Of a stretch of 64,000 nt of DNA, positions 247-2,428 are shown piece by piece. The notes beneath the pieces are model-generated. The model made no database searches, was not told the origin of the DNA, and worked only from the letters and a program-made list of their open reading frames with translations. The position numbers and the translations under genes are program-made. The DNA comes from a virus: IMG/VR virus record IMGVR_UViG_3300036398_001591, positions 18,556-82,555 of that record, one strand, 5' to 3'. How positions within the stretch are numbered: the first letter of the stretch is position 1; every line of letters starts with the position of its first letter.

Positions 247-251
247 AAAAC

Positions 252-317
252 TGGAGCAGTCACTACGATTCCCACGTAGATAATGGGTGGACCCCATCAC
301 GGTTAATATCCGACTGC
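252..317 (-). ncRNA. Degenerate tRNA-Gly(TCC)-like RNA (66 nt)
   Basis: Acceptor GCAGTC/GACTGC plus T-CCA, stem-loop carrying TCC, T-arm CTACG-TGGGAAT-CGTAG with non-canonical loop, reduced D region. Confidence 0.6.
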
Positions 318-324
318 ATAAAAC

Positions 325-398
325 TGGAGCGGAGTGAGAGAATCGAACTCTCAACAACAGATTGGAAATCTGTAGTTTTACCATTAAACTAACCCCGC
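325..398 (-). tRNA. tRNA-Gly(TCC)
   Basis: Anticodon loop TT-TCC-AA, canonical cloverleaf, T73-CCA. Confidence 0.92.
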
Positions 399-485: not shown

Positions 486-559
486 TGGTAGCGGGTGACA
501 GATTCGAACTGCCGATGCACCTGGCTTATGAGACCGGTGTGGTGGCCACCCTACCCGCA
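486..559 (-). tRNA. tRNA-Met(CAT), initiator-like (1:72 mismatch), short D-arm
   Basis: Anticodon loop CT-CAT-AA, T1:T72 mismatch, TTCGAAT, CCA. Confidence 0.75.
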
Positions 560-565
560 AATCTT

Positions 566-594
566 ATTATAACATACTCTATATATGTTGGCAA
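566..594 (-). promoter_or_regulatory. Sigma70-type promoter inside the tRNA array
   Basis: TTGCCA-17 bp-TATAAT filling the Tyr/Met spacer. Confidence 0.7.
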
Positions 595-595
595 C

Positions 596-683
596 TGGTG
601 GAGCCTGAAGGAATCGAACCATCCGCCAACCACCCTTCAATTAAAGGCAACGGATTTACAGTCCGCTGAAGGGAACAGGCTCC
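596..683 (-). tRNA. tRNA-Tyr(GTA)-like, lacking a canonical D-arm
   Basis: Acceptor GGAGCCT/AGGCTCC-A-CCA, anticodon arm GCGGA-CTGTAAA-TCCGT, TTCGATT loop; only about 10 nt between acceptor and anticodon stems. Confidence 0.75.
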
Positions 684-689
684 TAAAAC

Positions 690-764
690 TGGTACCGATG
701 GACAATTTCGAAATGTCGGCCTTTCGCTTATCAAGCGAATGCTCTTCCTCTGAGCTACATCGGT
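690..764 (-). tRNA. tRNA-Ile(GAT)
   Basis: Anticodon loop TT-GAT-AA, CCA. Confidence 0.9.
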
Positions 765-1539: not shown

Positions 1540-1631
1540 TGGTACCTCGACTGAGAATCGAACTCAGATGAACCAATTATCTGTTGCTTACGGGATATAA
1601 ATCCGCCGTTTTACCATTAAACTACCGAGGC
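1540..1631 (-). tRNA. tRNA with TAT anticodon (Ile-UAU) and long variable region
   Basis: Acceptor GCCTCGG/TCGAGGT-A-CCA, loop TT-TAT-AT, about 22-nt variable region, TTCGATT. Confidence 0.75.
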
Positions 1632-2399: not shown

Positions 2400-2428
2400 A
2401 TTATATAGGCTTTTTTTATTATTGGCAA
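2400..2428 (-). promoter_or_regulatory. Sigma70 promoter
   Basis: TTGCCA-17-TATAAT. Confidence 0.65.

Follow-up and report, generated by a model that had tools for sequence, protein, structure and literature searches.

What kind of gene lies at positions 596-683 of this phage DNA, where both ends and the anticodon arm of a tyrosine tRNA are present and the D arm is missing? The gene is on the minus strand of the window (the whole stretch of 64,000 nucleotides analysed), which is part of an 82.5-kb IMG/VR contig with an estimated completeness of about 49%. The contig is that of a T4-like myovirus, with genes for a sheath, a portal, a terminase, and a gp23-type capsid protein; the capsid protein has 62% identity to those of Methylophilales phage Melnitz and Pelagibacter phage Mosig, and DNA near-identical to the contig is found across many lake-water metagenomes. 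A minus-strand tRNA array is located in the window's first 2.1 kb and the preceding 7 kb. With ARAGORN, 16 tRNAs are called in the window and 27 in the contig as a whole; the gene at 596-683 is not among them. The Rfam tRNA model (RF00005) also scores the gene below the family threshold, without a match at E <= 1, and the best Rfam model is the one for tRNA-Sec (RF01852), at 30 bits against a threshold of 47. A homologue from the cultured phage Rembedalsseter reaches 26.3 bits with RF00005, where the threshold is 29. The answer proposed here, which comparative sequence evidence makes highly probable, is that the gene specifies a tyrosine tRNA (GUA) of the phage, folded in a conserved way that departs from the cloverleaf.

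Read on the minus strand, so that RNA position p equals 684 minus the window coordinate, the gene consists of the segments GGAGCCU GUU CCCUUCA GCGGA CUGUAAA UCCGU U GCC UUUAAU UGAAGGG UGGUU GGC GG AUGG UUCGAUU CCUU CAGGCUCC A CCA. A D arm, which would be a local hairpin at positions 10 to 25, is absent: only 10 nt separate a 7-bp acceptor strand from the anticodon stem, or 9 nt if the acceptor is counted as 8 bp, and no local complement exists. The first-pass annotation of this DNA had reported the loss of the D arm, as well as the complementarity of CCCUUCA to UGAAGGG and the UGGUUGG that follows, and the minus-strand sequence agrees on each of these. It had also listed the acceptor, A73-CCA, the GUA anticodon arm, and the T-loop as intact; all are present, with the anatomy corrected to an acceptor stem of 8 bp and a T stem of four positions (Table 1). 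The features shared with canonical tRNAs are the CCA end, an anticodon arm with a 5-bp stem and a 7-nt loop containing U33 and a purine at 37, and a T-loop of the form UUCRANY.

Table 1. Coordinates of the elements of the D-armless tRNA-Tyr gene and of its immediate neighbours (RNA numbering in the first column, window numbering in the second).
Feature	Window coordinates	Strand	Basis
Whole gene, non-canonical tRNA-Tyr(GUA), 88 nt, CCA encoded	596..683	-	Sequence; covariance model R1, 107.1 bits
Acceptor stem, 5' strand, nt 1-8 (GGAGCCUG), pairs with nt 77-84, 8 bp	676..683	-	Pairs 1-7 covary; pair 8-77 in 72/72
Connector U9 U10, 2 nt	674..675	-	UU in 53/72 homologues
Strand a, nt 11-16 (CCCUUC), 5' strand of the helix standing in for the D stem, continuous into the anticodon stem	668..673	-	Covariation, RNAalifold
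Anticodon arm: closing pair A17-U35, 5-bp stem 18-22/30-34, loop CUGUAAA	649..667	-	5/5 stem pairs covary; 17-35 in 64/72
Anticodon GUA	657-659	-	Sequence
Strand b, nt 36-38 (GCC), 5' half of the 3-bp stem in the variable arm	646..648	-	Combinations of b and b' covary
Linker, A/U-rich, nt 39-45 (UUUAAUU)	639..645	-	5 to 11 nt among homologues, sequence unconserved
Strand a', nt 46-51 (GAAGGG), partner of nt 11-16	633..638	-	Covariation, RNAalifold
D-loop-like segment U52 G53 G54 U55 U56	628..632	-	4-6 nt in 69/72; GG in 70/72
Strand b', nt 57-59 (GGC), partner of nt 36-38, crosses helix a-a'	625..627	-	Covariation
T arm: 4-position stem 62-65/73-76 (U63.U75 mismatch), loop UUCGAUU	608..622	-	Pair counts
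Acceptor 3' strand nt 77-84, discriminator A85 (= A73), encoded CCA	596..607	-	A73 in 72/72; CCA in 62/72
Promoter-like site TTGCCA-17-TATAAT (with TG), directly after the Tyr gene	566..594	-	Kept in relatives
tRNA-Ile(GAU), upstream neighbour in the same operon, CCA end 6 nt before the Tyr gene	690..764	-	ARAGORN, sequence

The gene belongs to a family. An exact 23-mer search recovered six near-identical copies in other viral contigs, with different upstream flanks, and pattern scans of viral contigs found the same design at no fewer than 92 loci, representing at least 72 distinct sequences; these counts are lower bounds, and the scans were pattern-biased. The search patterns imposed the letters of CUGUAAA and most of those of the T-loop, so the invariance of these parts is partly built in. 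Close relatives could have carried a normal D arm, as would follow from a recent deletion or an assembly error in this copy, but those at loci L002-L007, L034, L045, L051, and L208 all have the D-armless design. Family members are 86-96 nt long and have 22 nt (21 in two members) on the 5' side of the anticodon loop, whereas ordinary phage tRNA-Tyr genes recovered with the same patterns have 31-34. Scores from a covariance model built on 20 members (R1) are bimodal, with the family at 61-107 bits and ordinary tRNAs at the same loci at 34 bits or less. Ten of the 72 sequences do not encode CCA (the 3' ends are CUA, UUA, AAC, CAA, UAC, AAA, or GUA), and these members would therefore need the host CCA-adding enzyme.

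The family loci come from lake, soil, marine, and gut phages, and unannotated copies are carried by five cultured phage groups: SCYZ1, Rembedalsseter, and Lyrsu01-03 from Pseudomonas, RHph_N3_2 from Rhizobium, and crAss001. The copies in the cultured Pseudomonas and Rhizobium phages were detected by blastn with other family members as queries; blastn with the window's own copy recovered no cultured phage. The crAss001 member (from a Bacteroides phage; MH675552 4141-4238, L502:1501-1598) is divergent, at 38 bits, and appears to combine a 7-bp acceptor and a 5-bp T stem with a 5-bp cross-helix (CAUCA/UGAUG) and a 4-bp variable stem (CUCC/GGAG), without an encoded CCA. With cultured phages of Pseudomonas, Rhizobium, and Bacteroides as carriers, experiments are feasible. 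No family member was found in the cultured relatives nearest by capsid protein (Melnitz, Mosig, HTVC008M, and S-SKS1, 62% identity). Searches of cellular genomes with R1 at E <= 1e-8 gave none in 151 genomes of the Vibrio hangzhouensis (G001) class and none in 151 genomes of the Rhizobiaceae MAG (G005) class, about 29 candidates per genome being scored in each, and a pattern scan of cellular genome contigs gave only chance matches among the matches listed (at least 120).

Evidence for the fold comes from pair counts in an alignment of the 72 distinct sequences, for which the aligning model did not include the cross-helix. Nucleotides 11-17 and 45-51 are 94% paired, and six of the seven pairs have changes on both sides; for example, one position is U-A in 31 sequences, C-G in 16, G-U in 12, G-C in 6, and A-U in 4. 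None of 500 shuffles matched the observed values, shifting the partner strand removes the signal, and RNAalifold, run on the same alignment, independently recovered helix a-a' along with pairs 17-35 and 8-65. The proposal that the D stem is replaced by a long-range pairing to the variable region, for which the first-pass annotation had suggested a covariation check among homologues, is thus upheld by compensatory changes. The helix is real, but its extent was given as 7 bp, and it is best read as 6 bp (11-16/46-51), with A17 preferring U35 (64 of 72) to U45 (51 of 72).

The acceptor and anticodon stems covary as expected, the latter (GCGGA/UCCGU) at all five pairs. An eighth acceptor pair, G8-C77 (or 8-65 in canonical numbering), can form in every sequence (GC 44, UG 11, AU 8, UA 8, CG 1), while the canonical pair 49-65 can form in only 14 of 72, which makes the RNA an 8/4 tRNA. 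The T stem is weak: it has four positions, of which one is U.U in the window copy, and across the alignment 52-62 and 53-61 are invariant G-C, 51-63 is paired in 63 of 72, and 50-64 in 40 of 72. A second covarying helix, missed in the earlier anatomy, joins GCC at 36-38 to GGC at 57-59 in 72 of 72 sequences, with a middle pair of CG in 42 and UA in 16. The combinations of its strands are GCC/GGC (53), GUC/GAC (15), GUC/GGC (2), GUG/CAC (1), and GCC/GGU (1), and one longer copy has GCCC/GGGC. Helix b-b' lies at the site of a class II variable-arm stem, one nucleotide past the anticodon stem and two before the T stem, and since it crosses a-a', the fold is a pseudoknot. Taken together, covariation supports four features of the predicted structure: the 6-bp cross-helix, the 3-bp crossing helix, the eighth acceptor pair, and the 17-35 pair.

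Two other folds were considered and rejected. A local hairpin within the variable region (CCUUU/GAAGG) is paired in 53% of cases, compared to 52% in shuffles. The minimum-energy fold of the single sequence differs from the fold backed by covariation and was not retained as the conserved structure; for the window copy it comes to -33.6 kcal/mol, whereas the proposed fold reaches -27.5 when its nested part is scored and the pseudoknot is left out.

The chain of an ordinary tRNA departs from the acceptor stem close to the top of the D stem, descends to position 10, goes up through the D stem to a D loop that touches the T loop, and then comes back down into the anticodon stem. In the rewired RNA, a stack of 6+6 bp would replace the arm of the L shape that is otherwise made of the D stem and anticodon stem. 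The chain would enter the 6-bp helix at its elbow end and run straight down to the anticodon stem, and the return strand would come from the variable-arm loop up the helix, with the polarity of D-stem strand 10-13. The stretch bearing GG would then sit at the place of the D loop, and the chain would reach the T stem by way of the variable stem's 3' strand. Because the chain enters the helix at the elbow and exits toward the T stem, no D hairpin would be needed. In this model both helices would form simultaneously and the GG stretch may contact the T-loop, and the short spacing urges caution.

That spacing is one argument for a different placement of the UGG stretch, in which the cross-helix is real and the stretch does not mimic G18-G19; it would serve as loop 3 of an H-type pseudoknot, lodged in the groove where the top of a-a' is rich in C-G pairs, with the elbow held in another way. 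Only 4-6 nt separate a' from b', with exactly one nucleotide after GG in 19 of 72 sequences, which is short for a round trip to the T-loop. C-G is nearly invariant for the pairs at the top of the helix (71, 58, and 50 of 72), and one cultured member has UGUGU in place of UGG. However, GG is kept at a fixed place after the elbow-ward strand in all but two sequences, the commonest forms being UGGUU, UGGCU, and UGGC; by geometric inference the polarity is that of D-stem strand 10-13 followed by the D loop; and the T-loop stays canonical UUCGAUU. On balance, placement in the groove is regarded as rather unlikely, though it deserves serious attention, and the preferred model retains GG at the D-loop place.

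Does the RNA work as a tyrosine tRNA? The tyrosine identity elements in bacteria are G1-C72 and A73, with U35 (PMC9976931). The pair G1-C72 is GC in 72 of 72 homologues, as invariant as A73, and in two scans with the anticodon unfixed the family members had GUA only; the other scans required GUA. The 27 tRNAs called by ARAGORN in the contig cover 19 amino acids, and the sole absentee is Tyr. Similarly, 16 of 17 related arrays with at least 17 isotypes each have no canonical Tyr by ARAGORN, and eight of them miss Tyr alone. These array data argue for a real decoder over a mere mimic. If this is true, then ARAGORN and Rfam systematically miss one isotype, and phage sets seemingly without Tyr may be complete. 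Shigella phage Sf14, described as having 26 tRNAs for 19 amino acids, was considered as a hidden case and rejected, as an ordinary tRNA-Tyr is present.

The gene is the last of six behind a consensus promoter, with a second promoter after it; since the promoter-like site at 566-594 starts the next tRNA operon, the Tyr gene ends its own. It would be transcribed as the last gene of this six-tRNA operon and matured like its neighbours. No TyrRS gene was found on the 82.5-kb contig (approximately 49% complete), and the 43-47-kb phages lack room for one, so that host TyrRS would have to charge the RNA. Charging would take place through G1-C72, A73, and the GUA anticodon, and UAY codons would be read.

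Several other elements of the array were observed. Sigma-70 promoter-like sites at 566-594, 1200-1227, 2157-2184, and 2400-2428 (minus strand, 11-12 of 12 matches) divide it into short operons. At 1540-1631 (minus strand), ARAGORN calls a 92-nt tRNA-Ile(UAU), which scores 53.7 bits with the Rfam tRNA model; its anticodon stem contains an A.C mismatch, and its variable arm is long and resembles that of class II tRNAs, which is uncommon for an isoleucine tRNA. The 3-bp stem of this arm covaries among diverged relatives (CAA/UUG, CGA/UCG, CGC/GCG), and the 7-nt loop CAGAUAA that it encloses is kept; the loop displays GAU and resembles an Ile anticodon loop, and the arm may serve as a handle for IleRS. 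Between tRNA-Pro and tRNA-Gly, an intergenic stretch of about 79 nt (247-325, minus strand) is 95-99% conserved in close relatives. Also atypical is the tRNA-Met(CAU) that ARAGORN calls at 486-559 (minus strand): its D arm is reduced to a 3-bp stem and a small loop, the anticodon falls at position 30, and the first pair of the acceptor is mismatched.

A tRNA-Tyr look-alike could also act outside translation: it might be a regulatory RNA, or it might serve as a decoy that soaks up host factors which bind or cut tRNA-Tyr, such as Septu/PtuAB-type nucleases or modification enzymes. Canonical tRNA-Tyr occurs beside the rewired one in six loci from three or four phage lineages (L016, L273, L348/L383/L403, and L394), the genes lying within a few hundred bases of each other; for example, L016 (IMGVR_UViG_3300017565_000001, 424 kb) has two canonical tRNA-Tyr copies and a rewired one. 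This coexistence means that not every phage depends on the rewired gene alone for decoding, and while it fits a back-up role, it also keeps the decoy reading alive. Small phages likewise retain the rewired gene as their sole tRNA-like gene, as in Rembedalsseter and RHph_N3_2, which have no other tRNA gene; SCYZ1 and Lyrsu03 have one more. This distribution fits a special value of tRNA-Tyr better than a general codon supply. Against a decoy, the gene fills the only or nearly only missing isotype in 16 of the 17 near-complete phage sets and in its own phage, and G1-C72, A73, the encoded CCA, the 12-layer acceptor/T arm, and the exact 7-nt anticodon loop are strictly kept, though a decoy for a variable-arm nuclease could do without them. 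A role purely outside translation therefore appears improbable, and the gene is treated here as a decoder.

The remaining reading, a decaying tRNA-Tyr pseudogene or an assembly artefact minus the D arm, has in its favour that tRNA finders reject the gene and that no covering RNA contigs were seen, but it is given next to no credence and is already refuted by covariation, with compensatory changes in five helices or pairs, the same design repeated independently at the 92 or more loci (at least 72 distinct sequences, five cultured phage groups), and an almost identical gene in close relatives with differing flanks. In metatranscriptome contigs (four sets, at 90% likeness, which includes tRNAs of other organisms) the neighbouring ordinary tRNAs are covered; for the Tyr gene, 596-632 has a depth of 10.5 in one run and 633-669 has none, a coverage that weighs neither for nor against expression.

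If the RNA is a decoder, then the reason for its unusual fold may lie in phage defence. Septu and the PtuAB nuclease of retron-Eco7 stop phages by cutting the variable arm of host tRNA-Tyr, and T5-like phages escape via their own tRNA-Tyr (PMC11555353, PMC13096335). The tRNA-Tyr of phage T5 is reported to be resistant owing to its distinctive variable loop (PMC13096335). This published work on PtuAB gives a phage a reason for carrying tRNA-Tyr in particular (PMC11555353, PMC13096335). The first-pass annotation had raised resistance to host nucleases, or mimicry, as possibilities, and both are still speculative. A tRNA-Tyr with its variable arm cut to 3 bp and the loop locked in a helix is an obvious candidate for nuclease escape, and the literature on variable-arm nucleases makes resistance plausible (PMC13096335). 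It is tentatively suggested, as a possibility short of a favoured explanation, that the pseudoknotted, D-armless 8/4 fold is an anti-defence device that keeps what TyrRS, EF-Tu, and the ribosome need and removes or buries the free variable arm, along with the D arm, targeted by nucleases of the Septu/retron PtuAB type. More speculatively, selection may have favoured the fold for being neither recognised nor cleaved by host nucleases that attack the tRNA-Tyr variable arm. If so, this would explain why phages of 43-47 kb have the rewired Tyr as their only tRNA, and no earlier tRNA would have been shown to function in bacterial translation with a fold other than the cloverleaf. It would also provide a testable link to the arms race between phages and Septu or retrons over tRNA-Tyr.

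To our knowledge, the cloverleaf is treated as universal for elongator tRNAs outside organelles. If the reading proposed here is true, then this widespread RNA, which host enzymes must still process, charge, and use, would widen the limits of tRNA architecture and would offer a natural scaffold for orthogonal tRNA engineering. The design was not described in the literature covered by full-text searches, a 2020 review of non-canonical tRNAs (PMC7609411), and the paper on 8/4 tRNAs (PMC5389517).

Compared to canonical class II tRNA-Tyr(GUA) (RF00005), the rewired RNA has the same CUGUAAA loop with GUA, G1-C72, A73-CCA, and UUCGAUU T-loop, and the variable stem likewise begins one nucleotide past the anticodon stem and ends one or two short of the T stem. 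It differs in having no D hairpin (22 instead of 31-34 nt before the anticodon loop), in being 8/4 and not 7/5, in that the loop of the variable arm holds the partner of the D-like helix, forming a pseudoknot, and in that RF00005 does not score it. The tRNA-Sec family (RF01852) shares the longer acceptor stem, the 6-bp D-type helix, and the long variable arm; the weak tRNA-Sec score of the gene is due to the 6-bp D-type helix, 6-bp anticodon stem, and lengthened acceptor, which also mark tRNA-Sec. However, the rewired gene has GUA and not UCA, no D hairpin, a T stem of four positions, and a score below the threshold.

Among viral RNAs, the phage T5/T6 tRNA-Tyr species that counter retron-Eco7 and Septu PtuAB are also phage-encoded and have a variable region unlike that of the host, but they are cloverleaves, and the rewired fold is only a candidate for resistance (PMC11555353, PMC13096335). 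The tRNA-like structure of brome mosaic virus is viral, rewired in topology, and charged by TyrRS via A73 and anticodon-like nucleotides; in contrast to the rewired gene, it is the 3' end of a plant RNA virus genome, has identity of the C1-G72 type, does not decode, and has no homology in sequence or architecture (PMC9976931).

The nearest described forms are the 8/4 allo-tRNAs, in which the D hairpin is kept, and the D-armless mitochondrial tRNAs, which are truncated and have no rebuilt helix. The (8/4) allo-tRNAs, and the 8/4 tRNA-Ser and tRNA-His known from bacteria and from bacterial phages, resemble the rewired RNA: they occur in phage tRNA clusters and have an 8-bp acceptor with a 4-bp T stem (a 12-bp branch), an anticodon stem and a D-type helix of 6 bp each, and an extended variable region, but they keep a long-stem D hairpin with a tetraloop and are Ser, His, or suppressor species (PMC5389517). 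Mukai et al. in 2017 described neither a Tyr species nor any pairing that links the variable arm with the D region (PMC5389517). The D-armless tRNAs of mitochondria, such as nematode and mammalian mt-tRNA-Ser, are functional decoders without a D hairpin; however, they are shortened, have a flexible connector in place of the arm, and operate in a co-evolved organellar setting (PMC7609411). In comparison, the rewired tyrosine RNA is of full length, its helix would be rebuilt from the variable arm with covariation on both strands, and its setting would be that of bacterial translation.
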